DNA of 63,854 nucleotides, the filler included, from Candidatus Methanoxibalbensis ujae (GTDB lineage Archaea; Halobacteriota; Syntropharchaeia; Alkanophagales; Methanospirareceae), in the NCBI GenBank assembly GCA_026134085.1. It is 3 parts of 3 records of this genome, joined end to end, with 100 filler letters (N's around TTAATTAATTAA, not from the genome) between each part and the next. Parts side by side here need not be neighbours in the genome. Positions count along the whole stretch, not along the records: positions 23,969 to 46,562 come from JAOQIN010000029.1; 2 more parts are not named here. One strand, given 5' to 3'. Every line of letters starts with the position of its first letter. The stretch's first letter is position 1. The notes under the pieces were generated by a model that saw nothing but the letters and a program-made list of their open reading frames with translations, searched no databases and had not been told where the DNA came from. Position numbers and translations under genes: made by a program. Shown here in pieces: positions 1,903-46,662 of the stretch.

Positions 1903-2012
1903 TCCCGCCTCGCTCCGCAATCTTGTGTTTCACATCACGCTGAGATGAAAATTATACTCCTCATCTTCTATGATATATTGTGGAAGGGGATCTGAAAAGA
2001 GGAAGAGATGCG

Positions 2013-3440: not shown

Positions 3441-3490
3441 TGGATGTTTCTGACAGCTTCGCATTGAATTCCAGAGGAGTCTTACAGCGT

Positions 3491-3919
3491 TCAGTGCATG
3501 CGCTTTTCGGACTTCTTGGCTGCTTCAAGTATGCGGTCTGAGAGCTCTTTTTTCCGCCTGAAATACTCGTAATATGCGTTTTCACCGTAGAGCTCCATCA
3601 GAACGGCATCCCTGAACATGCATCCATGCCTCTTCATGCAACAGTATGATAGAGAGCCGAAACATACCCTGGGGTCATCCCAGCCGTGCTCTTTTGAAAA
3701 ATCATCTTTTATGCGCACGAACTCCTCCTTTGAAAGCCCTATCTCCTCCAAAAGCTCATCTCGCCGACAGCTGAGAGGCATCCCCACAAACGGCGAACGA
3801 GGATCGCAGCAGAATGTCAGCGAACGCTCATCTCCTCCGAGACATGCCGGAACAGGAGCCCCTCTCCATCCAGGCAGATCCCTCGTCCCTCCTCTTTTAT
3901 GATAAACCCTCACGCGCAC
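3491..3919 (-). CDS. Stand-alone methanogenesis marker 9 domain protein (Cys-rich)
   Basis: PACLGGDERSLTFCC..C, CFGSLSYCC..C.FRD, EYFRRKKELS pattern typical of the marker-9 domain. Confidence 0.75.
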   Translation of the reverse strand: MRVRVYHKRGGTRDLPGWRGAPVPACLGGDERSLTFCCDPRSPFVGMPLSCRRDELLEEIGLSKEEFVRIKDDFSKEHGWDDPRVCFGSLSYCCMKRHGCMFRDAVLMELYGENAYYEYFRRKKELSDRILEAAKKSEKRMH

Positions 3920-4009
3920 TCATCCTCCTTCCTTTTATCCTTTCTTATCCTCCCTACACCTCGCCGTGGCCAGACGCAGGCATCAACGACTCCGCAATCC
4001 TGTTCACAC

Positions 4010-4185
4010 CTGTAGGATCTGATTTTACGTGACCTCCTCACCTCAGTGAAGTGAGGGGCATCTCCTTCAGCGAGGTTCGGTTCCCATTTCATCCACCCGA
4101 GCTTACCTGGCAGCTCTTTCAGCCTTCCTGTCTCGGTCAAGGGCTTCACTTCGGGTCTGCCCGACCCCAGGCCCGCATAGCGAGC
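4010..4185 (-). ncRNA. Predicted TnpB omegaRNA (reRNA) scaffold plus flank-derived guide, copy 1
   Basis: TTTATATA (4213-4206) about 25 nt upstream; GGCAG...CTGCC closed structure; translation GSGRPEVKP...DAPHFTEVRRS resembles a tnpB 3' tail; ends at TCAC; expression is inferred. Confidence 0.55.
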
Positions 4186-4275
4186 AATGAATAATACGAT
4201 GATGCTATATAAATATAATGTAAACACCCACCTCTCCTGCTCCGCCAGAAGGCAGGAATGGCAGCAACAACATTC
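4029..4275 (-). mobile_element. Non-autonomous IS200/IS605 derivative (PATE/MITE), copy 1: LE hairpin + TATA + omegaRNA-like scaffold + RE
   Basis: On minus strand: TTTAA (4280-4276), then LE GTTGCTGCCATTCCTGCCTTCTGGCGGAGCAGGAGAGG shared with the tnpA remnants at 23285 and 37554; RE hairpin CCTCAC-9nt-GTGAGG ending GGAGGTCAC; homologous to 57852-58056. Confidence 0.8.
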
Positions 4276-4512
4276 TTAAATGATTGCATCGCATCCAAGA
4301 TCTTACTGCGGTGAAACTTATAAATCTTTATCTTTCTCCAGCTTCCTCGTCCCCTGCGTGGTTTTATCGCATACCATGTTGCAGTGACAGGTGATCTTTC
4401 CTCATCTCCCTGTTCACATCATCCAATCACAACAATACTCCTTCTCCATATTCTCCATATTATGCATGAGATATTGCTTTATGCATGAGATATCGCTGAG
4501 AAATGGCAATAA

Positions 4513-5100
4513 GTGCTTGATGATGATACTGCATGGATGAGAAGGGGAGCAGTCTTCAACGAATACATCGTAATTGAGATGGGAGAGGCATTGAATACAC
4601 GCATATCCGACGGAATTCTGTCTGAGGATGTTGAGACAGCTTTCCTGAGACATGCGACAAAGGATAAGACAGGATCTCGCTGCGAACACTTAGATTCAGG
4701 GGGAAGCTCTGCCGAGCATTGCCGCGGTCTCAATGAGATGAGGACAAGGCACATGAGTCGGCACTTATATGCGTGTCTTGATGCGATAGTTGCTGTCTTC
4801 GGTGTCCGCGTGGGGAAGGCGGTATACCGCTTCGCAGTGAACTCATGCAGATGGCTGTGAAAAGAGAATGTTCGCCTCAAAAATGAGGTTGCCGAAATCG
4901 TTACGAATTCCGTGAGAGATGCTTTGAAAAGTGTTGAATTCGTTCCCACGGCACACATTAAACGCAGTAAAGCGTCCCGCCGCTCACTCATCGCATCCCG
5001 GCTCTCCAATGGCGACAATCCGGATGCCTCACATGCACCATATGCCTTTTGAAAGCGCAGATGAGAAGAAAACACGTTCATCTGATTCACCACAGAGCGC
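4513..5100 (+). pseudogene. Probable decayed gene of unknown function
   Basis: 115-aa ORF continues protein-like past TGA 4858-4860 (KENVRLKNEVAEIVTNSVRDAL...) then meets several stops. Confidence 0.3.
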
Positions 5101-5578
5101 TGATGAGCTTGGGATACTCATACCTTTTTATCAGATGCTGAACTCATTCAACATGCCGCTGCTGAGCGCATAAATTATGAAAAAATGCTGAAACAGCATC
5201 GTGAAAGCAGGCACTTCTCAAGCCAGTTATGCTGAGATAAATTCAATCTTCATGAATTGAGTTTGATATGGAGAGATCAGACAGCAAAAAATATATAATG
5301 TATCTCAGATAATGAGATGAGGTTGTTTCGCAAATTTTGGAGGAAAAAGGGGAGTTATGAGTTGCAGCGCACGGAAATGCCTTATGCCCTCACGGCCTGT
5401 GAATAGGCAGAAAGAAATAAGCAGAAAGGAGCTTGAGAGCGGGTTCAAACGATCATCAGCCGCCAGAAGCCGCCAATAGTGCTCGTGTGGCAGGATGCCG
5501 GATATTTGTGTGATAAGCGGTGTGCAAGGTCTGTGTGAGGTGTGCTGAGGTGTGCGGTGAGAGGTGTGATGTGTGAGA

Positions 5579-6448
5579 TCAGAGCAGTTGTGAGAGGTCA
5601 GCACCGTAGAGCGGGGAGGGGGGCTGATGGGTTGTCGGCTGTGTTGATTGAGTTGTGGAAGTTGAGGGAGGGCGCGTGCTGTGCAGTCTTTCCTCAATTA
5701 TCTTTGCGTTTTTCTCCAGCGCTTCCTCCACATTTTTGATGTCAATATTCAGGTCTGTGAGATTTTTGAATGCGCGGAGTGCACGGATGCATGCGCGCAC
5801 ATCGTTAGGGCGGCTTCCGACGCCGAGTATTGCATAGCTATCTATATTCAGTTTTGATGCGAATCCGGGCAGCAGTCCGGTTTTTCGCAGTATTGTGTAG
5901 CTTCCCATCTCACGCCTCGTCATTTTCCTTATTCCATGCGGAATTTCCTTTGATTTCCTGCTGAATGATGCGATGAAAGCCTCAGCATCACCCATCCTCT
6001 CACGCTCCTCAGGCAACAGCACAATCACGCCTATGGTGTAGAGTTCCTCTATGAAAAGCTCTCTCGCAGTTTTTGCAAGGATCTCAGCCTGCTTATATGA
6101 TGCTTTCGGTATGTATTCAACCTCCGGATACTTCCCCACATACATGAAAAGACCCTTCTCCTCACTGAACCAGAGCTCATCGTGAGGAATCTCAAACACA
6201 TCATCATGCATCTCAACGACAGGAGGGAAGTTATACGAATAAAATCGCATTATTTCAACGGAATCATCTATATGCTCCTTCAGATTGAATGGAACAAGAT
6301 TCCCAACAGGTGGAAATCCAGCAACGAAAACAAATGAAGCTCTCTCATCACCGCGCTCACGACGCCTCAGCAGCCGCTCCTGCAGTCTCCTCTTGAAATC
6401 TCGCTCACTCACATTCCAGAAAGGCGTGAATTCCTCTATGAGCATCAC
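5579..6448 (-). CDS. PAC2 family (proteasome assembly chaperone-like) protein
   Basis: FVAGFPPVGNL, FYSYNFPPVV, TGLLPG, RPNDVRAC..L..LTDLNIDIKNVEE pattern. Confidence 0.7.
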   Translation of the reverse strand: MMLIEEFTPFWNVSERDFKRRLQERLLRRRERGDERASFVFVAGFPPVGNLVPFNLKEHIDDSVEIMRFYSYNFPPVVEMHDDVFEIPHDELWFSEEKGLFMYVGKYPEVEYIPKASYKQAEILAKTARELFIEELYTIGVIVLLPEERERMGDAEAFIASFSRKSKEIPHGIRKMTRREMGSYTILRKTGLLPGFASKLNIDSYAILGVGSRPNDVRACIRALRAFKNLTDLNIDIKNVEEALEKNAKIIEERLHSTRPPSTSTTQSTQPTTHQPPSPLYGADLSQLL

Positions 6449-6568
6449 TTTAATGTTTCCTCTTCTATTTTTCTTAATTGGTTAAAACATAAAAAACATA
6501 ACATACGCATAGCCGCCGAGCGGCACATCAAGAAGGATGATGAGAAATGGAATGGAGCGTGAACAGCA

Positions 6569-7966
6569 ATGAAAGTGCGCAGTCCGATGGAGATATATCG
6601 TCATCTGCCGCAGACGAACTGCGGGGAATGTGGCGAGATGACATGCATGGCTTTTGCATCACTCCTGAAAGAGCGAAAGAAGAAGTTGGAGGAATGTCCG
6701 CCGCTTATGAGTGATGAGTATGCTGAGCAGCGAGAGAAGATAGCGGAGATGCTCGCACCTGAGATAAGAGAGGTTGAGATAGGTGTGGGTGATAAAGCGG
6801 TCAAAATAGGCGGAGAAGAGGTGCTTCACAGGCACGAACTCACATTTTTCAACAGAACGGCGCTTTTTTATGATGTGTGGGACACGCTTGACGCGGACAG
6901 TCTGCGAGAGAGAGTGCATAAGATAGAGAGTTGGAAGAAGTTTTATGTCGGTGAATTCCTGCGATTGAACGGTATTGCTGTTCGTTCTGTGAGCAATGAT
7001 CCTGAGAAGTTTGAAGAATGCGTGAAAAAAGTTGCTGATACCACCGATCTGCCTCTTGTTCTCTGTTCATTTGATCCAAAAATTGTTGAAAGAGGATTGA
7101 AGCATGTGGCGGAGAGGAGACCCCTCATATATGCGGCGACTGAGCGCTCCTGGAGTGCGTTCCTGGAGCTCTCAAAGATGTATGAAGTTCCAGTGGCTCT
7201 TTTCTCGCAGTCTCTTGATGTTCTCACAAGTCTTGCGGTGACATTTGCAAATGCTGGCGTTGAGGACATCGTGCTTGATCCGTGCACTCATCCCATGGGA
7301 AAAGGTCTCGCTGACACATTCACGAAATTCGTGAAGATAAGGAGGGCAGGAATCGCAGATGGGAGAAAGGAGATCGCATATCCCCTTCTGAGCGTGCCAC
7401 TCACAGCATGGTTTTTCTTTGATGATCCTGTTGAGGCATCTTACTGGGAGGCAATTGTAGCGTCAATATTCATCATAAAATATGCGGATATAATGATACT
7501 GCACGGTTTGCAGCCTCATTCGCTTATTGTTGAGCGCACACTCGTAGAAACAATATATACTGATCCCAGAAGACCTGTGAGTGTTGAGCCAGGGCTCCGC
7601 ATAATAGGAAATCCGGATGGGAATTCGCCTTTATTCCTCACAACAAACTTTGCACTCACTTATTACACTGTTGAAAGCGATATAAGCTCAAATAAAATAG
7701 ATTCTTATCTTCTCGTCGTCGACACAGATGGGTTGGGTGTTGAGGCGGCAGTCGCGGGAGGGCAGCTCAATGCGGATAAAGTGAAGGATGCACTTGAGCA
7801 ATATGTTGACAGCAGGATAGAGCACAGAACGATTGTCATTCCGGGTCTCGCAGCGAGAATATCTGGCGAAACAGAGGAGAAGACAGGATGGAAAGTCCTC
7901 GTAGGTCCGAAGGACAGCGGAAGAATTCCTGACTGGATCGATAAAAACTGGCCGCCTGAAGTATGA
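6569..7966 (+). CDS. cdhE: Acetyl-CoA decarbonylase/synthase gamma subunit (large corrinoid Fe-S protein)
   Basis: LPQTNCGECG..TCMAFA, IGGEEVLHRHELTFFN, IYTDPRRP, TTNFALTYYTV, IPGLAARISG..GWKVLVGPKDS. Confidence 0.95.
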   Translation: MKVRSPMEIYRHLPQTNCGECGEMTCMAFASLLKERKKKLEECPPLMSDEYAEQREKIAEMLAPEIREVEIGVGDKAVKIGGEEVLHRHELTFFNRTALFYDVWDTLDADSLRERVHKIESWKKFYVGEFLRLNGIAVRSVSNDPEKFEECVKKVADTTDLPLVLCSFDPKIVERGLKHVAERRPLIYAATERSWSAFLELSKMYEVPVALFSQSLDVLTSLAVTFANAGVEDIVLDPCTHPMGKGLADTFTKFVKIRRAGIADGRKEIAYPLLSVPLTAWFFFDDPVEASYWEAIVASIFIIKYADIMILHGLQPHSLIVERTLVETIYTDPRRPVSVEPGLRIIGNPDGNSPLFLTTNFALTYYTVESDISSNKIDSYLLVVDTDGLGVEAAVAGGQLNADKVKDALEQYVDSRIEHRTIVIPGLAARISGETEEKTGWKVLVGPKDSGRIPDWIDKNWPPEV

Positions 7967-8017
7967 GTGATGTCATGTCATGGCCCACAGCCCAACAAAA
8001 ACAAAGCGCCAGAGCGA

Positions 8018-8389
8018 TCAGCGCCTTTTTTTCAGCACTATTATGTCAGGTCGTGGAGAGGATTTTGAAGATGCGAGCTCTCTGCGGCAGCTGTCACACA
8101 ACTCCCTCGCAGTCAGTGCAACAACCTCCTCCGAACCGGGCAATTTCCGCGCATATATGAAATCCGCCCTCAATCCCATATCCTCGCCTATCCGCCGCAT
8201 GACCTCTTTTATTTTTTCACTGAAAGCCTCAACATCATCCGCACGAAGACCTCTTATGTCAGCATAAAACCCGTAACATCCACATCTCATAGCAAATAAC
8301 TTCGCCTCAGGCACGAATATGCTGCCCACCAGAGACCTCAATTCGTTCTCAACACGCCTCCTGCCAGCATTTATGTCCTCCTTTTCCAT
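8018..8389 (-). CDS. Conserved hypothetical protein (DUF5402-like) with CGC and CxxC
   Basis: RCGCYGF.ADIRGL, YARKLPGSEEV, LCDSC; start placed at MEKED. Confidence 0.55.
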   Translation of the reverse strand: MEKEDINAGRRRVENELRSLVGSIFVPEAKLFAMRCGCYGFYADIRGLRADDVEAFSEKIKEVMRRIGEDMGLRADFIYARKLPGSEEVVALTARELCDSCRRELASSKSSPRPDIIVLKKRR

Positions 8390-8457
8390 TTTATTATCAC
8401 CTTCCTTTTTTATCCTTCCTTTTTTCTTGCCGCCCGGACAGGGATGACATTTTCCTT

Positions 8458-9471
8458 TCACTTTTCTATCAGTTTCAGCACTTTTTTCGTTATATCAGCG
8501 CAGTATCCGCATTCATTGCACATCTTATTGCATTTTTTCCACTTCTCCATGCATCCCTCAAGTGCGTTGTTGTCCACATAAAATATGTATTTCAGCTCTG
8601 CCGGGCAGTCAAGGATTTCAATGAGATTTCCATCATATTCGCGAGAAGCGTATGCACGAACCGCATTCAGAATCCATGCGACTGTGTTTGCTCTTCCCGC
8701 TATCTTGAAGTCCTCTATGCCTATTTCCTCATAATGATTCAGGTCTTCAGGTCTTATCCACGGCGATTTTATTATTTGTGAGGGGTCCCGCACTCTCAAG
8801 GAGATACATCTGTCAAAATAATAATCGCTGAATATGTCCGGTCTTCCTTCTGCAAGAGGGGACCTGCTCGCAGTAACATGGGAGAAAAGATTGAAATGCG
8901 CATATCTGAAAGGACATTTGTATATGCAACCTTCATTTACAATCACACGAATTCTGCAGTGTGACACTCTTTTTATCGCTCTGAGCACATCAAAATCTCT
9001 GTTTATGTTTGTGTCAACAGTGATGGCGTCCGCGCCGAGCATCTCATAGAAAACAGCTTTCTGCGGTGAATCGACATGAGACACGCAGCTCACCACAATC
9101 TCCATGGGATATTCCCGCAGCATCTCAACAAGATAGGGCTCAGCAACAGTTACAGCATCAACTTCCGCCCTGTTCAACTCGTTGAAGTACCAGCGCAGCA
9201 TGTTGTATCCCGCATATGTCAGATGATAGCCGCCAAGGCATGATGGATTCACAATTATATTCATCCTGATGTCATACTGATGTGCGAACGCAGTCTGCTC
9301 CTTTATCTCCGATATCAACGCTGCGTGCAGCGCGGCACGACCACTTCCCATTATTTCTGGAGGTCCGCTCATGAAAACTTCATGCACATCTTTCAGATTC
9401 TCATTCTCAACAACACGCAAAATTTCCTTAAGGGCATCAAAATGCCCGGGATGCGGAATCATCAGACGCAT
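8458..9471 (-). CDS. Peptidase U32 family Fe-S protein (UbiU/UbiV/TrhP-like)
   Basis: GSGR, VNEGCIYKCPFR..H, C..PWIRPEDL..Y, FKIAGR, C-terminal CxxxCxxCxYC. Confidence 0.85.
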   Translation of the reverse strand: MRLMIPHPGHFDALKEILRVVENENLKDVHEVFMSGPPEIMGSGRAALHAALISEIKEQTAFAHQYDIRMNIIVNPSCLGGYHLTYAGYNMLRWYFNELNRAEVDAVTVAEPYLVEMLREYPMEIVVSCVSHVDSPQKAVFYEMLGADAITVDTNINRDFDVLRAIKRVSHCRIRVIVNEGCIYKCPFRYAHFNLFSHVTASRSPLAEGRPDIFSDYYFDRCISLRVRDPSQIIKSPWIRPEDLNHYEEIGIEDFKIAGRANTVAWILNAVRAYASREYDGNLIEILDCPAELKYIFYVDNNALEGCMEKWKKCNKMCNECGYCADITKKVLKLIEK

Positions 9472-9657
9472 GTTTTATCATTGTATTTTGTTATGTATAT
9501 AACCCCTCCTATAATCAAGCCAAACCCGGCCATTCTCCTCCTTCTCAGCTGCGTGCTTTCAGCAAGACAATATGGCATGACATTATAATATTCACGCCTA
9601 ATTAGTAATAAAATAAATAAACTCAAAAACAAAATAATAAAAAATGAAAAAGGGAGC

Positions 9658-10635
9658 CTATTCCGACATTTTGAAGTATGGATGCGGCTCGTTCGTCTGC
9701 AAGCCGTGCTCACTTTGAGCTGCTTCAGCCACTATCATATCTATCATGCCGCAAAGCGGAAAGACAAGCGGTGCGTTTTCTATTGGGCCGTAGAGGACGT
9801 AATCCTGACCAAGCAGTATTGGAATTATGTTTGAGCCAACATCGCACAGATGAAAAACTTCAGCGCCGATACCCTCCCAGCCTTTCTCCGTCTTTTTCGC
9901 ATGAGCCTTCCTGTATTTTTTGAGCCATGTCCATGCGGATGGGGCGTTGTGAATGCCGAGACCGACTGGAATTCCGTATTTTGCTTTCACTGCGAAACCT
10001 GACAGGCAGGATGAACCGCAGCCAGCTCCTATGGGCAGTGTTGCTGGATCAAAAAGCGGCTTTGTGATGCCGAGGTCCTCGCGGGCGAGATGAAGCATAC
10101 CCTTTTCAAAAGTTCCTGCGCCAGTCTCCATGAGATCCATCTTTCCAGCGACTGTTGAGTCTTTTGGATTGAAACCGAGAAGGATTGCCGCGCTCATCTT
10201 GGAGTTCTTTATCTCCTCAAGCTCCTCCTTTGAGCATGACACATTTATTGAGTTGTATATTGCCCTGTCCGCGAGACCCACCTCATCACAGTATTTCATG
10301 CCTGCAATTTTCGCCTCAGCAACTGTTGAATCTATGAGGAATGGGTCATCGCTTATATCCGCACAGAACTCTATCTCCTTCTCCATTGCCTCAGGTGATT
10401 CAGAGAATATCTGAACCATTATCGGATTTCCTGTGATATCTGACATCTCCTCCTGCATCTTTATCAGTCTCTCCGCTTCCTTCTTGTCGAATATGCCCTT
10501 ATCTGCGTCCTCAACGATGTAGTGCTTCGCGTAAAATATCGTGCCTGCGAGAACAGTCGCATATTCACCTGGCTGACCTCCTATTTTCACACCCGCTATC
10601 TCATACACATCCTGCTTCCTGTCAAAGAGATACAC
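9658..10635 (-). CDS. mtrH: Tetrahydromethanopterin S-methyltransferase subunit H
   Basis: IGGQPGEYATVLAGTIFY, PFLIDST, RAIYNSIN, GIHNAPSAW, LYGPIENA. Confidence 0.96.
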   Translation of the reverse strand: MYLFDRKQDVYEIAGVKIGGQPGEYATVLAGTIFYAKHYIVEDADKGIFDKKEAERLIKMQEEMSDITGNPIMVQIFSESPEAMEKEIEFCADISDDPFLIDSTVAEAKIAGMKYCDEVGLADRAIYNSINVSCSKEELEEIKNSKMSAAILLGFNPKDSTVAGKMDLMETGAGTFEKGMLHLAREDLGITKPLFDPATLPIGAGCGSSCLSGFAVKAKYGIPVGLGIHNAPSAWTWLKKYRKAHAKKTEKGWEGIGAEVFHLCDVGSNIIPILLGQDYVLYGPIENAPLVFPLCGMIDMIVAEAAQSEHGLQTNEPHPYFKMSE

Positions 10636-10704
10636 GATGCATCACCCCATTCAAATTTCTCCACAATATTTCTCCCCTCCCTCTTCCTCCCTTCTCCTTC
10701 TGTT

Positions 10705-10944
10705 TCAAAGAAGGAAAAGCACATACAGGAGCGTTCCGACGATTAGACCGTAGAGGATGCCTATCGTGAACCCTATTTTCTCGCCCTGTCGCTGGCTCAG
10801 CTCTCCCATGACGAACTCCACCTTCTCGTCCATCGCCTTCAACCGATCAATCAGCTTCCTGTATTCTGGTGGCGTCATCGCTATCGGAATCGCCACTTCC
10901 TCCCCCTTCTCCACCGCTTCCTCCTTCCCTTTATCCTCCGCCAT
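10705..10944 (-). CDS. mtrG: Mtr subunit G
   Basis: RL..MDEKVEFV.GEL.QRQGEKIG..IGILYG; operon position. Confidence 0.9.
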   Translation of the reverse strand: MAEDKGKEEAVEKGEEVAIPIAMTPPEYRKLIDRLKAMDEKVEFVMGELSQRQGEKIGFTIGILYGLIVGTLLYVLFLL

Positions 10945-11002
10945 CTTCACTCACTCCTTTTTTCTTCCTCTTCTTCTCTTCTCCTCTCTTCTCTTCTCTC
11001 TC

Positions 11003-23284: not shown

Positions 23285-23480
23285 GAATTTAATGTTGCTG
23301 CCATTCCTGCCTTTTGGTAGAGCGGGAGAGGTGGGTGGATAATATATGGTGACCATATCCGAGACGGTGAAGCAAGAGCACTGGATGAGTGCAGCGGGCT
23401 GCGTGTATTATACCAACACTTCGTATGGTGCACTACAGGAAGCCTGGTTGCGGAGTATCTGAGGAAGCCTCATGAGGATA
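23285..23480 (+). mobile_element. tnpA: IS200/IS605 left end plus frameshifted tnpA 5' fragment
   Basis: LE GTTGCTGCCATTCCTGCCTTTTGGTAGAGCGGGAGAGG; ATG 23346 MVTISETVKQEHWMSAAGCVYYTN / HFVWCT / YRKP across frameshifts (IS200 Y1 transposase N-terminus); right boundary approximate. Confidence 0.75.
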
Positions 23481-23868
23481 TTGCAATCTCATACTAAGTA
23501 TTGTTATAAACCCGGACCACGCTTTTCATCACGGCGCATTCAAAGTAGTCTAAGTGGTGACAGCAAAGTTCCTGTTTGAGACCTGAGCTGAAGGGAAATT
23601 GTGGGCATCTTTGGCTACTGCGGCATGGGGATGTCTCAGACAATTTATAAAGAGGCAGAATGTGAAAGCAATAACTCACAAGTTCAGGCTGTATCCTTCC
23701 GATAAGCAAAAAGAGAAGTTGCTGTTCATACTGGAGCAATGCAGGTGGCTCTATAGCTGCTTTCAATCATAAATGAGAGCAAGAAGACGCCTTCAAAACG
23801 CAAGGTGCAATCTATGCTTCCAAAGCTGAAAGATGAGCGAGAAAAACTGAAAGAAGTGAACGCAAAGA

Positions 23869-23968
23869 NNNNNNNNNNNNNNNNNNNNNNNNNNNNNNNN
23901 NNNNNNNNNNNNTTAATTAATTAANNNNNNNNNNNNNNNNNNNNNNNNNNNNNNNNNNNNNNNNNNNN
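23869..23968. other. Assembly gap with artificial linker
   Basis: 100 nt of N with central TTAATTAATTAA. Confidence 0.98.
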
Positions 23969-32015: not shown

Positions 32016-32408
32016 ATGATGCGACGAGATTACGAGATTTATGAGGAGCTGAGGGATGTGCTGCGTGAGATGGATGAGGATGAGTATGTGGATGCGATCA
32101 TCGTTGAAGGTAAGAACGATAAAAGAGCGCTTGAGGAAATGGGCGTAGTGAAGCATATAGCGATGTATCCGGGGGCTCGCTGCTCATATGACATGTTTAT
32201 AGAGCACATGAAAAAATATAAATGTGTCGTTATACTGACAGATTATGACAGAAAAGGAAAATATTTCCACAGAAAACTTTCAAAAAGGCTTGAACGGGAA
32301 GGTATCAGGATAGAAAATCGCTATCGTGATAGGATAGGAGAGATATTTGGAGAGAAAGGTATGAGAACAATAGAGTCCATGCGTTCGTTAATGCGAAGAT
32401 TTGAGTGA
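32016..32408 (+). CDS. Small TOPRIM-domain protein
   Basis: IIVEGKND..AL, ILTDYDRKG. Confidence 0.85.
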   Translation: MMRRDYEIYEELRDVLREMDEDEYVDAIIVEGKNDKRALEEMGVVKHIAMYPGARCSYDMFIEHMKKYKCVVILTDYDRKGKYFHRKLSKRLEREGIRIENRYRDRIGEIFGEKGMRTIESMRSLMRRFE

Positions 32409-33347: not shown

Positions 33348-35078
33348 ATGATAAACATAGACATAGCGAAGATTTTTGACGAGATAGCGGACATCCTTGA
33401 GATAAAGGGAGACAATCCTTTCAGGGTGAGAGCATACAGGCGTGCAGCGCGCACCATAGAGACTCTCACGCAGGACCTGCGCAGCATTGTTGAGAGGGGG
33501 GGAGGCGTTTATGAATTAACCAGGATTCCGGGCATAGGCGAGGGCATCGCGAAGAAAATTGTGGAGATCGTCAAAACCGGGAAAAGCAGCAAGCTTGAAG
33601 AACTGAAGAAAGAAGTGCCTCCTGAGCTCGTTGAACTTCTTAAAATACCGGGTTTGGGTCCGAAAACCATAGCAAAAATTCACAGGGAGCTTGGAATATG
33701 CACGGTAGATGAGCTTGAAGAGGCTGCCAAAGCGCACAAATTGTCAAAACTGTCTGGATTGGGAAGGAAGGCGGAGGAAAACATACTCAGAGGCATATCA
33801 CAATATCGCAGAAATACGGGGAGAGTGCCTATTGCAAGGGCACTGCCATATGCTGAGATGATTGCGAAAACGCTGAAATCTCTTAAATCAGTGCGGAATG
33901 TTGTGATTGCGGGCAGTCTGAGGCGGTGGAAGGACACGATAGGCGATATTGACATACTTGTGACGGCGGATGATGCTGAGGAGGTCATGGATGCGTTCAC
34001 ATCGCTTGATGGGGTTGAGGAGGTCATCGCGAGAGGAGATACGAGATCCTCCGTGATATTCAGAGGGATGAACGCCGACATTCGTGTGGTGCCTTCTGAA
34101 TCCTTTGGTGCTGCAACACATTATTTCACAGGCTCAAAACAGCACAACATACGCATAAGAGAGCTCGGAATGAGGAAGGGACTGAAAATAAACGAATATG
34201 GCATATTCAGAGGTGAGAGGAGATTATGCGGGGAGAGGGAAGAAGATGTTTTCCGAAGTGTGGGTCTACCCTATATCCCGCCCGAGTTGCGGGAGGATTG
34301 GGGAGAGATAGAAGCGGCGCAGTCCGGAAACCTGCCAAAACTGATTGAGATAAATGATTTGAGGGGAGATCTTCATGTCCACACAGATTACAGCGATGGC
34401 AAAAACAGCATAGAGGAGATGGCAAACGCCGCTATATCATTGAATTACGAGTATATCGCAGCAGCCGACCATTCAAAGTCGGTTGGAATTGCGGGAGGAA
34501 TTGACGAGAAGAAGCTGAAAAAGAGACAGAAGGAGATAGAGAGGTTGAACCGCGAGTTTGAGCACGCGGGAATCGCATTCCGCATATTGTCAGCGGTTGA
34601 GGTCGATATAAAATCAGATTTCTCGCTTGACTTTGATGATGAAATTCTGAAAGAGATTGATGTTGTCATTGCAGCAGTCCATTCAAAGCTCAATCAGGAC
34701 AGGAAAACAATGACAGATCGCATTATCAGTGCTATGGAAAACCCAAATGTCGACATTATCGCACATCCCACGGGAAGAATTCTCGGCAGAAGAGAGCCTT
34801 ATCCTCTTGATATGGAGCGTGTGATGGAGGTGGCACGCGACACAGGCACTGTCCTTGAGCTGAACGCACATCCCGACAGGCTTGACCTCTGCGATGTCCA
34901 CTGCAAGCTCGCGAAGGATTTCGGCGTGAGTATAGCGATCTCCTCAGATGCACACGATGTCACGCAGATGCGGGATGTGATCAAATATGGAGTTGCCACA
35001 GCTAGAAGGGGCTGGCTATCCGCCTCAGATGTGGTCAACACGCGCAGCATCGATAATCTGCTCAGAATCCTGAAATGA
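33348..35078 (+). CDS. polX: DNA polymerase X with C-terminal PHP domain
   Basis: NPFRVRAYRRAA, AGSLRR..TIGDIDIL, YFTGSK.HN, GDLHVHT.YSDG, HPTGR, SDAH. Confidence 0.95.
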   Translation: MINIDIAKIFDEIADILEIKGDNPFRVRAYRRAARTIETLTQDLRSIVERGGGVYELTRIPGIGEGIAKKIVEIVKTGKSSKLEELKKEVPPELVELLKIPGLGPKTIAKIHRELGICTVDELEEAAKAHKLSKLSGLGRKAEENILRGISQYRRNTGRVPIARALPYAEMIAKTLKSLKSVRNVVIAGSLRRWKDTIGDIDILVTADDAEEVMDAFTSLDGVEEVIARGDTRSSVIFRGMNADIRVVPSESFGAATHYFTGSKQHNIRIRELGMRKGLKINEYGIFRGERRLCGEREEDVFRSVGLPYIPPELREDWGEIEAAQSGNLPKLIEINDLRGDLHVHTDYSDGKNSIEEMANAAISLNYEYIAAADHSKSVGIAGGIDEKKLKKRQKEIERLNREFEHAGIAFRILSAVEVDIKSDFSLDFDDEILKEIDVVIAAVHSKLNQDRKTMTDRIISAMENPNVDIIAHPTGRILGRREPYPLDMERVMEVARDTGTVLELNAHPDRLDLCDVHCKLAKDFGVSIAISSDAHDVTQMRDVIKYGVATARRGWLSASDVVNTRSIDNLLRILK

Positions 35079-36824: not shown

Positions 36825-37160
36825 TGGTCTCATTTCCCGGGAGTGGGCTGTTTTGTGCAGTCATGCCATCGCTCGGAGAGTCTGCAAAGTGCTACCGGTG
36901 CACTCCTTCAACTTCACCGAACTCCTCTAACTTCACCGAAGGCGAAGGAGTTTGATGAGGAAAAGTGGGAGTTTGATGAGGAAAAGTGGCTTGAGAGATG
37001 GGTGAACGAGGGAATGAAGTGCGGATATGGCAGTGCTGCTCATATGGCGCCTTTATCGCTTAGTTTGACATCTGCTCAGTTTGACATCTCAGACCTTCCA
37101 GTTGCTGCAGCACTTCAATGACCTCTTTTGCGTCTTTCAATCTCAATCTGAAGTTCCACT

Positions 37161-37421
37161 TTCCACTGGAAATCATCCATATATAAAGATTTTGCATGAT
37201 GAGAGGTTCCAGTGGAAATTGTTGAAAGAATGAAGGACAGGCATTCATTTCAAAAACAGAGGATTATAAGGGGATTTTCCATCAGAAATTAGGCCTGTCT
37301 AAATTTCACATTTACTCCGCATGAAATAAGCATTATCAGCGATCCTTTTCCGCATAAATACATTATACACTCTTCTTTCAGGAGGAATGAACACCCCCAC
37401 CCCTGCATTTCCACTGGAACT
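37161..37421. other. Candidate replication origin A (three ORB/mini-ORB boxes)
   Basis: Minus-strand GTTCCAGTGGAAATGCAGGGGTGGGGG (37420-37394, ORB with G-string), inverted GTTCCAGTGGAAAT at 37206, third box TTCCACTGGAAAT at 37161; AT-rich core. Confidence 0.75.
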
Positions 37422-37553
37422 CAAATTTCCTTATTCAACCTGCGAGAGTATGTCAGTGCATGAGATGCCACAGTTCAAGTGAAATCGGCAGTGTCTCATG
37501 CTCACATCTGCTGGCGGCGGGAGCTTACTGTTGTCGTAGAACTGTGATCGGCA

Positions 37554-37865
37554 GAATATTTTATCGTTGCTGCCATTCCCCCTTCTGGTAGAGAAGGGTG
37601 GGATAAGAATTTATATATGGTGACAATATCTGAGATGATGGTGAAGCAGGGGCACTGGATAACGGCGGCAGCATTTTGTATGATGCACTACAGGAGGCCT
37701 GTCAGGCCTTGCGGAATGAGAGAGCTGAATGAGGAGAAGCGCAGGATCATACTGAGAGAGCAATTCATAAATCCTGATCATGTTCATCTTTTATGCGGAG
37801 ATGTTACAAAGGAAACTGTGAACCTCACTGAGCCCCTTACTTCATTCAGTGAGGGAGGAGGTCAC
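37554..37865 (+). mobile_element. tnpA: Internally deleted IS200/IS605 element: LE + tnpA pseudogene + RE
   Basis: LE GTTGCTGCCATTCCCCTTCTGG; MVTISEM.VKQGHW..YRRP..NPDHVHLL (HUH motif); RE GAACCTCACTGAGCCCCTTACTTCA..GAGGGAGGAGGTCAC matches the RE at 4029. Confidence 0.82.
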
Positions 37866-37982
37866 ATACGGACGGTCTATACTGACTCTATACTGACTGT
37901 CTATAATCAGAGGTCTCTCGCGGTGAGGGGTGACTGATAGTCAATATAGTCAATAAAAAGATATGGGAAAAGGGGAGATGTG

Positions 37983-38462
37983 ATGACGAACCTGTCAAAA
38001 CAACGCAGGATGGCGGCAGAAATTTTGAAGGTGGGCGTGGGGAGGGTGTGGATAGACCCCGAAGCGATGGAGGATGTGGCTGCTGCAATTACGAGGGAGG
38101 ATGTCCGGAAGCTCATAGGGGAAGGTGTAATAAGAAGAAAGCAGAAGAAAGGCGTCTCAAGAGGAAGAGCGAGAGAGAGAATGAGAAAGCGAAAGAAAGG
38201 GCGTGGAAGAGGGCCTGGATCACGAAAGGGTGCAGAATACGCGAGACTGCCGAGAAAGAGGCGTTGGATAATGCGTATACGCGCACTGCGAAGAAGACTG
38301 CGAGAACTCAGAGATGAGAAAAAAATTGACAGACACTCATATCGCATCCTCTACCGCAGAGCAAAAGGAGGAATGTTCAAAAGCGTCGCTCATCTTGAGG
38401 AATACATAAAAACAAACAATATGCTAATTGAAGCAGAAAGCAGAGAAGCAGGAAAAAAATAA
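37983..38462 (+). CDS. rpl19e: 50S ribosomal protein L19e
   Basis: QRRMAAEILKVG..RVWIDP, GRGPGSRKG, W...IRALRR.LRELRD. Confidence 0.96.
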   Translation: MTNLSKQRRMAAEILKVGVGRVWIDPEAMEDVAAAITREDVRKLIGEGVIRRKQKKGVSRGRARERMRKRKKGRGRGPGSRKGAEYARLPRKRRWIMRIRALRRRLRELRDEKKIDRHSYRILYRRAKGGMFKSVAHLEEYIKTNNMLIEAESREAGKK

Positions 38463-38656
38463 AGATGGAATCATGATAATAACTGGCAGAAGAAAAGAGA
38501 AGAAAGAGGATAAAGGAAGAGGGAGGAAGAGGAAATAAACAGAGTAAGACAAAAAGCAAGATTAGATAGGAAATAATTGCTTTAAATAAATAAAAATAAA
38601 AACATATAATAATATGCTAATAAATATAAAAAATATAAAGGAGAAGAGATGGAGAA

Positions 38657-39205
38657 ATGGCGAAAGGACCGACATATAGAGTTCCATTCAGAAGGAGGAG
38701 AGAGGGCAAGACCCACTATCACAAGCGACTGCGACTCATAATGAGTGGAAAACCGAGGCTCGTGGTGAGAAAAAGCAACAAATATATAAGGGTTCAGCTT
38801 ATCTCCGCCGAGAAGTATGGAGATAGAACAATAGCATCTGCGATATCATCGGAGCTTCCGGTGTTCGGCTGGAGATATGGTATGAAGAATCTGCCCGCCG
38901 CATATCTCACAGGATTCCTGCTTGGCAGTCGCGCGGCGATGAAAGGATATGAGGATGCAATACTGGACATCGGTCTGCACACACCATCCCCCGGTTCACG
39001 CGTCTACGCGGCATTGAATGGTGCAGTTGACGCAGGTATGAATATACCTCATGACGAATCAATATTTCCCGATGAGAGACGAATAAGAGGGGAGCATATT
39101 GCTGAACATATGCAAATTGATGATATCGTTGAAAACTTTGAGGAGGTGAAAAGAAGAATAGAGGAGGAAGGCTTTCTAAACGAAAGCCAAAACGGTGAGC
39201 GGTAA
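38657..39205 (+). CDS. rpl18: 50S ribosomal protein L18
   Basis: [38 protein letters not shown]. Confidence 0.96.
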
Positions 39206-39879
39206 TGGCGGAGGAGGTGGAAGAGACACTACCGGAGAGGGTGGAATTGGATAAGGCAGTAGAAAAGGAGGAGAAAGAAAAGTTACTGGAGGCGTGGGAG
39301 CCGAGGACAACTCTGGGGAAGCTTGTGAAGAAAAAGGCGATAACGACAATTGAACAGGCGTTGAAATCGGGATATCCGCTGAAGGAGCCGGAGATTGTGG
39401 ATTATCTTCTGCGGGATCTGAAGGAGGAGGTCCTTGACATAAATCTTGTGCAGCGGATGACTGATTCGGGGAGGAGGGTGAAATTCAGAATATGTGCAGT
39501 TGTTGGCAACGGAGATGGATATGTCGGCGTCGGTAAGGGTAAGGATGTGCTTGTTCGTAATGGTATTTTGAAAGCTGTGAGAGATGCGAAGCTGAACATA
39601 GCATATGTGGAGCGCGGGTGCGGTTCATGGGAGTGCAACTGTGAGGAGAGTCATTCAGTGCCCTTCAAGGTTGTCGGGAAATCAGGAAGCGTGAGGATAA
39701 CACTTAAACCAGCACCAAGAGGCGTCGGCATCGTGTCGGGCGAAACTGCGAAAAAAGTGCTTGAGTTCGCTGGCATAAAAGATGTGTGGACAAACACAAA
39801 AGGTGAGACGAGAACTTCGCTGAATTTCGCATTCGCAACATTTGACGCCCTTAAGAAAATCGCGATGTACAGAAGATGA
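39205..39879 (+). CDS. rps5: 30S ribosomal protein S5
   Basis: [31 protein letters not shown]. Confidence 0.96.
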
Positions 39880-39999
39880 TGTACAGAAGATGAAAAATGA
39901 TTGAGGGTGCTGTGATAATCAGAACATCATGGACCGGTAGTCTTCATCGCTCGTCTTCATCGCTCTCGGCTGTCGGAACTGTCGGAAGTCGGAAGGAGG

Positions 40000-40479
40000 A
40001 TGATAGGGATGCTGTATGCGGTGGTGAGGCTGCGAGGGAGGGTTGATGTCCGCCCTGAGGTGAGGTATACCCTCAAGCTCCTGAGGTTGAACAGGATAAA
40101 TCACTGCGCAGTCGTGCCTGCGAACGAATATTACAGAGGCATGCTGAATGTGATCAAGGACTATGTGGCATGGGGGGAGATATCGGAGGACATGCTCTCA
40201 ATGTTGCTGAAGCGAAGAGGAAGGTTGGAAGGAGGAAAAAGGCTGACAGAAGAATATCTCAAAGAAAACACACCGTTTCAGTCTTTTGAGGACCTCTCAA
40301 AAGCACTTATGAAAGGTGAAATAAGAATGAAGGATCTGATGAAGTATAAGATAAAACCTATTTTCAGACTACATCCTCCAAGAAAAGGGCATAAAGGAAT
40401 CAAAAAGAGTTTCGAAAAAGGTGGGGAATTGGGTTATCATGGTGATAAAATAAATGAATTGTTGTATAAAATGAGATGA
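40000..40479 (+). CDS. rpl30: 50S ribosomal protein L30 (archaeal L30P)
   Basis: AVVRLRG, TL.LLRL.R.NH, VKDY-like IKDYVAWGE, FRLHPPRKG..GIK, GGELGY. Confidence 0.95.
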   Translation: MIGMLYAVVRLRGRVDVRPEVRYTLKLLRLNRINHCAVVPANEYYRGMLNVIKDYVAWGEISEDMLSMLLKRRGRLEGGKRLTEEYLKENTPFQSFEDLSKALMKGEIRMKDLMKYKIKPIFRLHPPRKGHKGIKKSFEKGGELGYHGDKINELLYKMR

Positions 40480-40734
40480 TTTCGCTTTTACCTTTTCTTT
40501 TTTATTCTATTCCTTCTTTCTTCTTAAATTCTTCTCCATTTCCCAAACCTGTGACTCCTCACTTTCCTTCGCTTCAATACTTTCAACCTTTCTCACACAC
40601 TCATTAACTCTCATCATGTTCCATTCACTTCACTTTCGCTCCATCAGATAACATGAGTTATTCTTCTAAGTAACAGAAATCGCTGATGATGTTCTACTGA
40701 TAATGTTCAATATGGTTGTGGAATTATGTTTTGA

Positions 40735-40994
40735 AGTTCCAGTGGAAATGCAGGGGTGGGGGTCTGCTTATGTTGTTGTAGGTCTTTGGAAATCCTGTAT
40801 TTTTTGAAAAAGAGCGCTGTGAATCCCTGTTTTTGCGCATGATCATCGCGATTTTCAGGTTTGATGTGTGTGCGCGAAATATGCAATTTCCTTTGTTATT
40901 TTTTTGAAAGAACCTCTCTCATACATTCTTTCAACAATTTCCACTGGAACCTCTCATCATGCAAAATCTTTATATATGGATGATTTCCAGTGGA
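40735..40994. other. Candidate replication origin B, inverted homologue of A
   Basis: GTTCCAGTGGAAATGCAGGGGTGGGGG at 40736, inverted ATTTCCACTGGAAC ending 40950, TTTATATA and third box TTTCCAGTGGA ending 40994. Confidence 0.75.
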
Positions 40995-41021
40995 GGTTCA
41001 ATTCCAGATTGGGGTAAAAAA

Positions 41022-42041
41022 TCAAAGAAGTTCAGGCAATAATGCAGCTATGAGTGCGGCAGGTATGAGCGTCATACCTATGAATCCGTTTTTGCACATC
41101 TCTATCACAGCTTTCTTCTCGTTTCTCTTTTCCTTTTCATTCCTTTCTCCTGTTCCTGCATGTCTGCACAGTCTCAGAGATATGAATGCACTTTTGAACG
41201 AGAAATATGCGGGCATCGCAAGTAAAAAAATTGCTACGGGAACACTGATCAGACCCGTAACGAACATGGGTATGAATGAGAGCCAGGTCATCAGTGTAAG
41301 AGGTGCATAGATACAATATGCGAAGTTTTTGCTGAAACGAACGACAAGATTTATGCGGTTTATCGCGCGATCATAATCATAATCCGGGATTTCTCGTGCT
41401 ATTTTCATCTTAAAAACATCTATCATGAAAGGTAACGCAGCGATCAGAGGGGTAATGCTGATTGAATGTGCCTGAATATAAAATCCGCTTAAAATTGTGA
41501 TGAATCCCACGCCTATCGCGAGTGCGAGCTCACCGAGCCCTATGTATGAGAGTTTTAGACCTCTTGAGTATGAATAAGCTATGAAAATACCGATGAGTCC
41601 AATAGGAAGTGTGAGTTCTCCTGTGTTGAGAATGAATTGAAGGATGAATCCGAGAGGAATTGCGAGGGCAGCGCAGAGATAAGCGCCAAAAATTGCCTTT
41701 TCAACGGATATTCTGCCGCTTAAAAATTCTTCAAACCTTCCTGTTGTGGCTGTTGTGTGGAATCCTGACAGATGTGTGCGATGATGTCGGTGATGTGTGC
41801 TGTCATGGGCGGGCAGTATGCGCGAATTCCGCAGATCCTCATAAACACTTGAGGCGTTCAGCACGAAACAAAATGCTGTTAGCAGTATGACAGCGAGGAG
41901 CGATATGAAAAATGACAGGAAATCAGGGGAGTTCCCTTCAGACCATGCGAGAACGCTTCCCAGCACAAACGGTATGAGTGTTGTTGAGAATTTTGGAGGA
42001 GATGCGAGAGACAGCCATCCCTTAAACTCCTCAAATTTCAT
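41022..42041 (-). CDS. UbiA/MenA-like prenyltransferase
   Basis: Multi-TM; P..LGSVLA, YSYS..LSYIGLGE, EIPDYDYD...R.NLVVRF. Confidence 0.8.
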   Translation of the reverse strand: MKFEEFKGWLSLASPPKFSTTLIPFVLGSVLAWSEGNSPDFLSFFISLLAVILLTAFCFVLNASSVYEDLRNSRILPAHDSTHHRHHRTHLSGFHTTATTGRFEEFLSGRISVEKAIFGAYLCAALAIPLGFILQFILNTGELTLPIGLIGIFIAYSYSRGLKLSYIGLGELALAIGVGFITILSGFYIQAHSISITPLIAALPFMIDVFKMKIAREIPDYDYDRAINRINLVVRFSKNFAYCIYAPLTLMTWLSFIPMFVTGLISVPVAIFLLAMPAYFSFKSAFISLRLCRHAGTGERNEKEKRNEKKAVIEMCKNGFIGMTLIPAALIAALLPELL

Positions 42042-42086
42042 GTTCCCCTCTCAATGTGCGATGATGAAGATGCATGCGGTTCTATA

Positions 42087-42743
42087 CTATATGCCAGCTG
42101 CCTCTCTCTTCTCAATAACAGCTTTTATTTTCTTCAATCGTGTGAAGTTCTCCCTCTCCATCTCCTCAAGGCGCATCTGTATGTATCTTCGAGTCTCCTT
42201 CAATCTCGGAATGACAACATATTTCAGTGCGTTCACACGGCGTTTCGTCTTTTCAACCTCAGATGCGAGGTGTCTCACAGCTTCCTCAATCTCAGCGAGC
42301 CTCAAAATCTTCTCAACAGCTTCCTCAAAGCATCTCGCCGCCTCGTCAAGTGCTGAGGAGGAGTCTGTTATGCTGTATCCACGCTCAGTCGTCTTTCTGA
42401 CGAGGTGTCTGAATTCAATAATCGGGATGCTGACGCCCATCACGCTCCTCGCAGCAAATTCAATGCGCATTTCCTGAGGCCTTGCAGATAAAGACAGATT
42501 TCTCACTTTTTCAGCGCCAAGCATTGCTTTTGCAATTGCAAGATGTGTGAATGCCTCCTTCATCTTCGCCTCCATCTCCTTCCTCGCATCACGGACCTCA
42601 CAGACAACATCCAATAACTCCGCGACGAGCGCATCCCTCTTCTCACGAAGAAGTTCCTCCCCGTTCTCAGCAAGCTTCTCACGCTGCCTCAACCTCAGAA
42701 GCTCCATCCTTGTGGGGCTTACGCCTTCTATCCTCTCGGGCAT
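42087..42743 (-). CDS. atpD: A/V-type ATP synthase subunit D
   Basis: PTRMELLRL, LL.EKRDAL, VMGVSIP, EVEKTKRRVNAL..VVIP, LEEMERENFTRLK. Confidence 0.96.
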   Translation of the reverse strand: MPERIEGVSPTRMELLRLRQREKLAENGEELLREKRDALVAELLDVVCEVRDARKEMEAKMKEAFTHLAIAKAMLGAEKVRNLSLSARPQEMRIEFAARSVMGVSIPIIEFRHLVRKTTERGYSITDSSSALDEAARCFEEAVEKILRLAEIEEAVRHLASEVEKTKRRVNALKYVVIPRLKETRRYIQMRLEEMERENFTRLKKIKAVIEKREAAGI

Positions 42744-42793
42744 ATCTCCATCCCTCCATCCTTCAATCTTCCCTCTTTTTCCCCTTCTTTTCT

Positions 42794-43501
42794 CTATGCT
42801 TCTCCCGTTCCCTTTTCCACAATGTATATGCCATCCTGGAAAACCCTCGGGTCTCTGCGCTTGATTCTTGTTGCTCTTTCTATGTTTGCTGCCGTTTGAC
42901 CGACAGATTCCTTGTTGATGCCGCGAACTATTATCTCTGTCTCTTCCTTACCACCCTCTCCCTTTCTGATTTCAACAGAAACACCCTCCAATATCTTCGC
43001 AATCCTGCTTTTCCGCTCACCGAGGAAGTTTGAAATGATGACGCTGTCCTTTGAGACGCTCACCTGTATTGGAAAATGCGAGCGGAACACGCGCAGTTTG
43101 TAGTAGAACCCCTCTCTAACGCCGATTATCATGTTGCGTATGTGTGCGGCGAATGTCCCCACAATTGCTTTCTTCTTTCTTCTCTGCGTATCGCTTGAAA
43201 CAACTATTTCAGTTATGCTCCTCCCTCCTTCTGTCTCTTCTGTCTCTTCTGTCTCCTCATCTGCGGCGCTCGTCTCTGTCGCTTCTCCTGCCGCTTCCTC
43301 ATCCGCTCCCCGTCTCTGCACAACTACAATCTTCACATCGGGATACCAGAGCTCCCTCTCAAGAACACCCTTGGGTCCTGAGACGCGAACCTTTCTGCCG
43401 TCTATTATCTCAACTTCAACATCATCAGGCACGGGCACTCTTACGCTGTATCCCTCATGACGCGCATGTCGCTCACTCTCCTCAATGGCCTCCACACTCA
43501 T
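42794..43501 (-). CDS. rpl6: 50S ribosomal protein L6 with acidic insertion
   Basis: [43 protein letters not shown]. Confidence 0.95.
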
Positions 43502-46562: not shown

Positions 46563-46662
46563 NNNNNNNNNNNNNNNNNNNNNNNNNNNNNNNNNNNNNN
46601 NNNNNNTTAATTAATTAANNNNNNNNNNNNNNNNNNNNNNNNNNNNNNNNNNNNNNNNNNNN
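46563..46662. other. Assembly gap with artificial linker
   Basis: 100 nt of N with central TTAATTAATTAA. Confidence 0.98.

Follow-up and report, generated by a model that had tools for sequence, protein, structure and literature searches.

Where does the chromosome of Candidatus Methanoxibalbensis ujae begin to replicate, and could two inverted sequence units that bracket ribosomal-protein genes be the place? The organism belongs to the ANME-1 group of anaerobic methanotrophic archaea, which are uncultured in pure form. The window, i.e. the whole stretch of DNA analysed here (63,854 nucleotides), consists of contigs C21, C22 and C32 of the source assembly (label G000; 1.99 Mb in 86 contigs), separated by N runs at window positions 23869-23968 and 46563-46662. 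As the window is three joined contigs, adjacency across these runs is meaningless, and the finding lies entirely on C22 (window 23969-46562). The units at 37157-37421 and 40735-40998 are inverted copies of each other and carry boxes which, by sequence, are canonical origin recognition boxes (ORBs) of Orc1/Cdc6 initiators. Judged from such sequence comparison, the two units are likely, if far from certainly, the Orc1-1-dependent replication origin of the chromosome, in a split or twin form round ribosomal-protein genes.

The inverted-repeat search returned two pairs of arms, 37162-37256 with 40900-40994 (95 nt, 91% identity) and 37393-37421 with 40735-40763 (29 nt, 100%), and in a scripted check 37162-37232 was the exact reverse complement of 40924-40994 (71/71), as was the shorter arm of its partner (29/29). 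Both cores measure 160 bp, because the 71-bp and the 29-bp matches share one gapless register, and left and right core are identical at only 69 of these 160 positions; the facing GTTCCAGTGGAAAT boxes (37206-37420 and 40736-40950) span 215 bp in each unit. Inverted twin units with identical ends and diverged cores, as an earlier note made from the sequence alone had described them, are thus what is found. From the outside inwards, each unit is composed of an outer ORB-like box, a TATATAAAGATTTT element, a mini-ORB1, the 160-bp core and a full ORB with its G-string (Table 1); the spacer between outer box and mini-ORB1 is 35 bp long and contains a TATA element, which we take to be an archaeal TATA box with B recognition element (BRE), predicted from the consensus to point out of the bracket. 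The left core still holds a degenerate second mini-ORB, for which the right unit of the window has no counterpart in an alignment of six units. Of the two full ORBs, the left one is on the minus strand and the right one on the plus strand, so that their G-strings point away from the enclosed genes. Between the units there follow, from left to right, a transposon remnant with an open reading frame (ORF) of 106 aa, the genes of L19e, L18, S5 and L30 and a 255-bp spacer, and the Pfam matches of the four genes agree with the claim that ribosomal genes are bracketed. Logan contigs of four runs from four studies contain both units and break at the 71-bp repeat, as expected for a true inverted repeat; one joint in a Logan contig of run X8, which connects 37419 to 40737 on the 29-letter side, is most simply a repeat artefact.

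The boxes themselves are rare. With up to one mismatch, TTCCAGTGGAAA matches 7 times in the window, where 0.43 matches are expected and 0 of 100 shuffles reach 7, and its 5 exact matches in the window are all within the two units. In the genome as a whole (1.99 Mb), the exact core has 6 sites, the five at this locus and one on C78, which is inside a 520-aa ORF and lacks a G-string. Taking the dyad core TTCCAGTGGAAA followed by a G-string as the mark of an ORB, both G-string boxes are ORBs, and three more boxes per unit pair have the core only. The published consensus is CTTCCAGTGGAAACGAAAGGGGT for Archaea and GTTCCAGTGGAAATGG-AGGGGTA for Methanomassiliicoccales, with an optional GGGGGT extension (PMC4153887, Table 2), and the match to it, extension included, bears out the earlier assignment of the boxes to Orc1/Cdc6 ORBs with G-string.

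Inverted repeats that flank a 3.3-kb segment, which is flipped in relatives, and a transposon remnant inside the bracket could also suggest a mobile element with the units as its terminal inverted repeats, a site-specific invertible cassette, or an assembly artefact. These explanations are largely refuted, and we consider them very improbable. A blastn comparison of 37100-41100 with the whole genome gave no further copy of the units, and as they are unique, with five of the six exact cores at this locus and the sixth inside a gene, they are not a miniature inverted-repeat transposable element (MITE); the count of the unit across the genome, confined to C22, is the opposite of the many dispersed copies of a MITE, and a MITE or other mobile element was rejected on copy number. 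Moreover, the cargo consists of core ribosomal genes that are kept in place across the family, no transposase was seen among the neighbouring genes annotated by Pfam, and no recombinase is among the Pfam-annotated genes in or around the bracket, neither here nor in the related genome G036. The units are also present in independent assemblies from four studies and in a second genus. A structured RNA was rejected, as Rfam gave only one sub-threshold match (snoU13, 19.7 bits, gathering score 46), and a scan for bacterial promoters and terminators gave no more matches than in shuffles.

An origin of this type needs to be considered together with its initiator. Two Cdc6_C matches were found in the genome, on C34 and C1 and none on C22, and the units are thus detached from the initiator gene, as the earlier note had said. 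The gene at C34:14376-15587 has the Cdc6_C match at 110 bits, and its protein matches Orc1-1 of Sulfolobus solfataricus (2qby_A, E 8.8e-112) and ORC1 of Aeropyrum pernix (2v1u_A, E 1.8e-109) in the PDB, the latter structure being described as bound to an ORB element of oriC1 (PMC3607249). By this similarity, C34 encodes the predicted cognate initiator of the Orc1-1 type. No ORBs and no origin-like repeats were found near orc1-1 in C34:8000-21000. A location beside the initiator gene is typical for an origin, not obligatory, and the units do not have it. Nor is such a location found in relatives: in the closest genome with the same ribosomal genes, the metagenome-assembled genome (MAG) of Methanophagales archaeon AOM70-1 (G009), the initiator gene is 34 kb from the units, and in G019, G020, G036, G073 and G054 it is on another contig than the ORBs.

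The second gene, C1:134270-135328, encodes a diverged Cdc6 paralogue (E 1.4e-45 vs 8.8e-112 for the C34 protein), and at its locus (C1:133463-135430) a 30-nt repeat with a TTACAAGTGGAAAT core occurs in four exact copies, of which two are upstream of the gene on the minus strand and two downstream on the plus strand. Either a second origin or the replicon of an integrated element may be located here. As these inverted repeats flanking a cdc6-like gene are a textbook pairing of initiator and origin, the units on C22 might be a relic or a dormant origin, the active one being elsewhere, for example at this gene. We regard this as quite unlikely. The C1 protein is the more diverged paralogue and may come from an integrated element, both origins may exist side by side, and at the ribosomal locus about 28 non-coding nucleotides are kept across at least 10 genera with a fixed spacing in six units, which argues for continuing selection.

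This conservation is best seen by comparison with G009, where four units are nested round the same genes in the order McrC, unit, PcrB, unit, L19e-L30, unit, LarA, unit. The six units of the two genomes, which belong to two genera, align without gaps; their cores are 160-161 bp long and 40-50% identical between genera, the G-string ORB is identical at 25 of 29 positions, and mini-ORB1 and the TATA motif are kept in all six. The proposed length constraint therefore holds in a second genus. Within each genome, left and right copies of the 71-bp block share genome-specific bases, and the blocks thus evolve in concert and not merely under selection. The general synteny of G000 and G009 is otherwise broken into blocks of 1-6 genes.

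Across the family, 66 genomes were searched with a strict pattern (core, 3-6 bases, GGGG), the reversed pattern serving as control. The strict G-string ORB is present in 37 of them, usually at 1-2 sites per genome and at 4 in G009, and the control gave two matches in all 66. S5 was found in 57 of the 66 genomes and was not found in 4 of the 37 with an ORB. Among the 33 genomes with both, an ORB lies on the S5 contig within 10 kb in 25 (within 5 kb in 24), and in the other 8 S5 is on a different, mostly short, contig. At 31 of 32 linked sites the core is next to the genes and the G-string points outward, the exception being G008. Both sides of the bracket are on one contig in G000, G009, G036 and G073 and, if one mismatch in one box is accepted, also in G014, G054 and G066, so that the pair, together with the G009 units and the 25 linked genomes, can be regarded as conserved in relatives. 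Outside the genera g1 and g10, there is a single ORB of about 30 bp on each side, which abuts the neighbouring gene, and the bracket holds LarA, L19e, L18, S5, L30 and PcrB, with a DUF2099 or QueC-like gene on one side of it and a McrC-like gene on the other; LarA-L19e-L18-S5-L30-PcrB is the ancestral content of the bracket. In most genera the ORBs have no TATA element.

Twin modules in inverted orientation, separated by 2.2 and 3.4 kb, are also found in Ca. Alkanophaga of the sister family, where they occupy another locus. These modules comprise the G-string ORB, a facing box 94 bp away, TATATAA outside the facing box, and an outer box, and their arms are identical over 112 nt in one genome. 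As Ca. Alkanophaga also has it, the elaborated module is probably ancestral to the order and was reduced in most ANME-1 genera. The units are not a recent duplication; the bracket is family-wide and, in its elaborated form, order-wide. The strict pattern was absent from two Vulcanisaeta genomes and from Methanomicrobia archaeon JdFR-19, and one Methanoregulaceae genome has a single orphan site. As the class-level matches in family f5 are within genes (MMPL, HdrA-like), they were not taken as origins. In a class-level relative, G028, a single strict G-string ORB is at position 6161 of C151, 112 bp upstream of mcm (3962-6049), and the location of ORBs therefore differs between families of the class.

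The bracketed segment is found in both orientations. In G036 and G073, which are of one genus, the flanks are collinear (58-3331 with 1-3275, and 7790-11001 with 7711-10928), and the interior of G036, 3308-7815, aligns in reverse to 7737-3253 of G073 with 81% identity, the breakpoints being both ORBs; G036 and G014 are collinear throughout. By gene order, G043 and G060 of genus g13 also have the flipped state, and G009 has the ribosomal sub-segment in inverted orientation between its inner units. As G036/G073, g13 and G009 differ, at least three inversions end at ORBs, of which the inversion between G036 and G073 has breakpoints at base level and the others are read from gene order.

Whether the arrangement of the boxes fits an origin depends on their polarity. 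According to a preprint, the minimal pattern of predicted oriCs of the CDC6 type is ORB(-)/DUE/ORB(+), with DUE as the DNA unwinding element, and 67% of those in complete or chromosome-level genomes have it (10.64898/2026.08.15.744077). The cdc6-adjacent origin of Ca. Mnemosynella biddleae, the comparator used here, reads C-string plus core, 159 bp at 21% GC, core plus G-string, 100 bp, cdc6, with a locus mean of 39% GC. The polarity rule taken from this depends on a single comparator locus, and it presupposes that the motif is oriented in the preprint as in the published consensus. In the pattern of the preprint and in the comparator, G-strings do not face the unwinding element. By this rule, canonical polarity is kept by the two G-string ORBs of the bracket, but across 3.3-5.3 kb of genes in place of the unwinding element; a second, local module of canonical polarity is formed in the window units by the trio of outer box, 35-bp TATA spacer and mini-ORB1. 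In Ca. Mnemosynella biddleae, three more lone G-string ORBs, all on the plus strand, are 2-12 kb from the compact origin (G082:C1:128000-156000).

As to AT-richness, the cores, which had been thought to be an AT-rich unwinding element, turned out only moderately AT-rich (36-37.5% GC vs 45.5% in the genome). The non-coding spacer next to the right G-string ORB is on the side where the cdc6-adjacent comparator origin has its unwinding element (Table 1). The L19e-L18 spacer (38463-38656) is unusually long and extremely AT-rich, with 40-mers up to the 99.9th percentile of genome instability; its part 38553-38640 was considered as unwinding element and rejected, as G009 has only about 24 bp there.

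A skew analysis was possible on the 1.19-Mb contig of G008, whose only two exact cores are at 1,023,935 and 1,025,492. The cumulative GC skew has its minimum at 1,003,955, the purine-pyrimidine (RY) skew its minimum at 1,011,871 and the amino-keto (MK) skew its maximum at 999,499, i.e. these extremes of a noisy curve are 14-26 kb from the ORB on a contig of 1.19 Mb. Skew thus gives a weak minimum near the ORBs in one relative, but in a noisy curve with other minima. The single G-string ORB of G008 is reversed and located right at the end of L30. An N-terminal remnant of orc1-1 with about 45 codons is found at G008:C1 ~633,680-633,820, and this assembly, which is 92% complete and in five contigs, gave no Cdc6_C match.

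Several observations weigh against an origin at the bracket. The 215-bp facing pair, i.e. mini-ORB1, 160-bp core and G-string ORB, which had been read as ORBs flanking an unwinding element, is opposite in polarity to the cdc6-adjacent origin. There is no pronounced AT-rich element adjoining any ANME-1 ORB examined, and flanks of 140 bp, compared in nine brackets from seven relatives, mostly differ from the locus mean by no more than about 10 points of GC, none being near the 21% of the comparator. In most genera the partner ORBs are 4.3-5.3 kb apart, each abutting a gene end, and to our knowledge no characterised origin works over an ORB distance of 4.3-5.3 kb. In the window, genes converge on the right unit and do not diverge from it, and 29 of the 66 family genomes have no strict match, a number to be read with fragmented assemblies and a strict pattern in mind. 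In G008 the skew falls to a second low where the contig ends and shows a local V near 620 kb, not far from the orc1 remnant; it is confounded by gene orientation, and the polarity of the ORB is reversed. The earlier idea of a duplicated or bipartite origin under a length constraint is upheld in its ORBs, their uniqueness, the detachment from the initiator, the spacing and the conservation; the units are, however, not a recent duplication, the facing pair is opposite in polarity and the cores are only moderately AT-rich.

That no strong unwinding element adjoins the boxes also favours a non-replicative role, in which the boxes are Orc1 sites that control the outward TATA promoters, or that mark or insulate the ribosomal segment, with replication starting elsewhere or without a fixed origin. 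A TATA-like element between two boxes is present in 6/6 units and in Ca. Alkanophaga, and presumably resembles a promoter regulated by the initiator; furthermore, G008 retains an ORB though only a remnant of orc1-1 was found in its 92%-complete assembly, and origin-independent replication has been reported in Thermococcus (PMC5663688, PMC11005403). However, just one or two sites per genome do not suit the motif of a regulator, the TATA element is absent beside the ORBs of most genera, and the outward promoters of the window face no gene, as the left one is directed antisense into non-coding DNA that varies, and the right one antisense to UbiA. Such a role is therefore unlikely, although it deserves to be kept in mind.

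A split or twin origin can be set beside several known or predicted systems. Sulfolobus oriC1 (ORB3-DUE-ORB2) has inverted ORBs as well and belongs to the same initiator clade (the C34 protein matches 2qby_A at E 8.8e-112), and one Orc1-1 monomer binds per ORB with a defined polarity and directs MCM, the replicative helicase, to the DNA in between (PMC12141716). There, however, two ORBs and an AT-rich element are within about 130 bp beside orc1-1, whereas in the present case 3.3 kb with four genes separates the full ORBs and the initiator is encoded on another contig. The predicted origins of Methanomassiliicoccales have a near-identical ORB including the optional GGGGGT, an ORB pair spaced by 39 bp, similar to the 35-bp spacer between outer box and mini-ORB1, and in Ca. 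M. alvus ORBs that flank a gene at a distance of about 1.8 kb, like the bracket here (PMC4153887); but the bracketed gene is orc1/cdc6.1 and not ribosomal-protein genes, and those origins are also predictions only. Ca. Mnemosynella biddleae shares outward G-string ORBs, minus at the left and plus at the right, and its gap of 159 bp is close to the 160-bp cores. It differs in that this gap, at 21% GC, separates the ORBs and cdc6 follows 100 bp further on, whereas here 3.3 kb of genes are between them; besides, the 160-bp cores are on the G-string side of the ORB and the gap of Ca. Mnemosynella biddleae is on the core side. Like the bracket, oriC1-dnaA-oriC2 of Helicobacter pylori consists of two box clusters split by a gene (PMC3479198), but it is an analogy and not a homology, as the boxes bind DnaA instead of Orc1 and the intervening gene is that of the initiator. 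The oriC of Hyperthermus butylicus is an ORB(-)/DUE/ORB(+) pattern that is not next to an initiator gene, yet it is described as a compact single module and is no twin bracket round genes (10.64898/2026.08.15.744077).

If the two units are the origin, Orc1-1, encoded on another contig, would bind the boxes and recruit MCM there. The trio of outer box, TATA element and mini-ORB would provide each side with a local ORB(-)/AT-rich/ORB(+) module in G000 and its nearest relative, and because each side has such a module, either unit could fire alone. The inverted ORBs may also serve as recombination substrates: crossovers limited to the conserved blocks would flip the enclosed genes and keep the blocks identical, and the cores, too diverged to recombine, would drift under the length constraint. 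As the positions and the polarity of the ORBs remain unchanged, the flip would be tolerated or neutral. A bolder version for ANME-1 as a whole would be an origin split into ORB(-)/DUE/ORB(+) halves 3-5 kb apart, in which the highly expressed ribosomal operon replaces the unwinding element and initiation is coupled to transcription of the ribosomal genes, with RNA polymerase unwinding the DNA or joining two MCM rings, and in which the ORB pair is a neutral inversion switch. This is speculative, and we would be somewhat surprised if it proved right in full.

Table 1. Features of the bracketed locus on contig C22 (window coordinates).
Feature	Position	Strand	Evidence
Left unit	37157..37421		Inverted copy of 40735-40998; aligns gap-free to four AOM70-1 MAG units
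Left outer ORB-like box, TTCCAGTGGAAA on minus	37160..37171	-	Exact core match; G009 counterparts are TCCAGAGGAAG-type boxes in the same alignment columns
Left TATATAAAGATTTT element, minus reads TTTATATA after an A-rich stretch	37180..37193	-	TAT(A/T)TAAAG kept in 6/6 aligned units
Left mini-ORB1 (GTTCCAGTGGAAAT)	37206..37219	+	Exact match; kept in all six units
Left 160-bp core	37233..37392		GC 36.2% vs genome 45.5%; 91st percentile of duplex instability
Degenerate mini-ORB2 (TTCCATCAGAAAT)	37277..37289	+	Aligns with intact TTCCAGTGGAAAT boxes in 4/4 G009 units
Left G-string ORB, GTTCCAGTGGAAATGCAGGGGTGGGGGT on minus	37393..37421	-	29/29 identical to right copy; fits published consensus plus GGGGGT extension
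IS605/TnpB-type element, left-end remnant	37560..37800	+	Copies at ends of C2, C21, C42 and C43
Ribosomal protein L19e	37980..38462	+	Pfam PF01280, PF25476
Ribosomal protein L18 (L5e family)	38657..39205	+	Pfam PF17144
Ribosomal protein S5	39205..39879	+	Pfam PF00333, PF03719
Ribosomal protein L30	40000..40479	+	Pfam PF00327
AT-rich non-coding spacer, core side of right G-string ORB	40480..40734		GC 34.5%; several of the region's least stable 40-mers
Right G-string ORB	40735..40763	+	Repeat search; 29/29 identical to left copy
Right 160-bp core	40764..40923		GC 37.5%; 79th percentile of instability
Right mini-ORB1	40937..40950	-	Exact match
Right TTTATATA, pointing out of the bracket	40969..40976	+	Within 71-bp identical block
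Right outer box (TTCCAGTGGA)	40985..40994	+	Identical block ends here

The transposon remnant of the bracket has a depth of 3-7 fold in Logan contigs, and two of its copies, at the ends of C2 and C21, continue into a TnpB-like reading frame. The 106-aa ORF (37617-37937), which has no match in the Pfam search, is probably not a gene because it overlaps this remnant. The multi-copy left end of the element is also found at window 23288-23868, the end of C21, and copies begin C42 and C43; the element evidently breaks the assembly. Short tandem duplications, perfect or near-perfect and non-coding, are present at 36902-36939 (19 bp), 36947-36988 (21 bp), 37058-37089 (16 bp) and 39864-39891 (14 bp), of which those of 21, 16 and 14 bp are missing in contigs of other samples, and comparable duplications are found upstream of orc1-1 on C34.

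To the right of the bracket, at window 41022-43501, the gene of L6 is on the other strand, away from L19e-L30, with the genes of ATP synthase subunit D and of a UbiA prenyltransferase as neighbours. In this genome the usual archaeal order of ribosomal genes is disrupted. At 33348-35078, 2 kb left of the left unit, a DNA polymerase of family X with a PHP domain is encoded, preceded by a small ORF with a Toprim domain (32016-32408).

In full-text searches of the literature, no origin of ANME-1 or Methanophagales was found described; subscription papers and bioRxiv supplements, such as Table S1 of the Ori-Finder-Arch preprint, are outside the scope of that search and might list predictions. The annotation pipeline of the preprint cited above considers single intergenic regions and gives priority to those beside an initiator gene (10.64898/2026.08.15.744077). 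A conserved ORB pair that is detached from the initiator gene and brackets genes does not fit such a template, and standard annotation could miss the locus. Should it be a true origin, it would be a marker for estimating growth rates from metagenome coverage in methane-oxidising communities and a candidate replicator for genetic tools, and it would be a natural test of the maximum separation of Orc1 sites that allows productive MCM loading. The exact inversion at the ORBs further suggests that binding sites of an initiator can be hot spots of rearrangement in the chromosomes of archaea.

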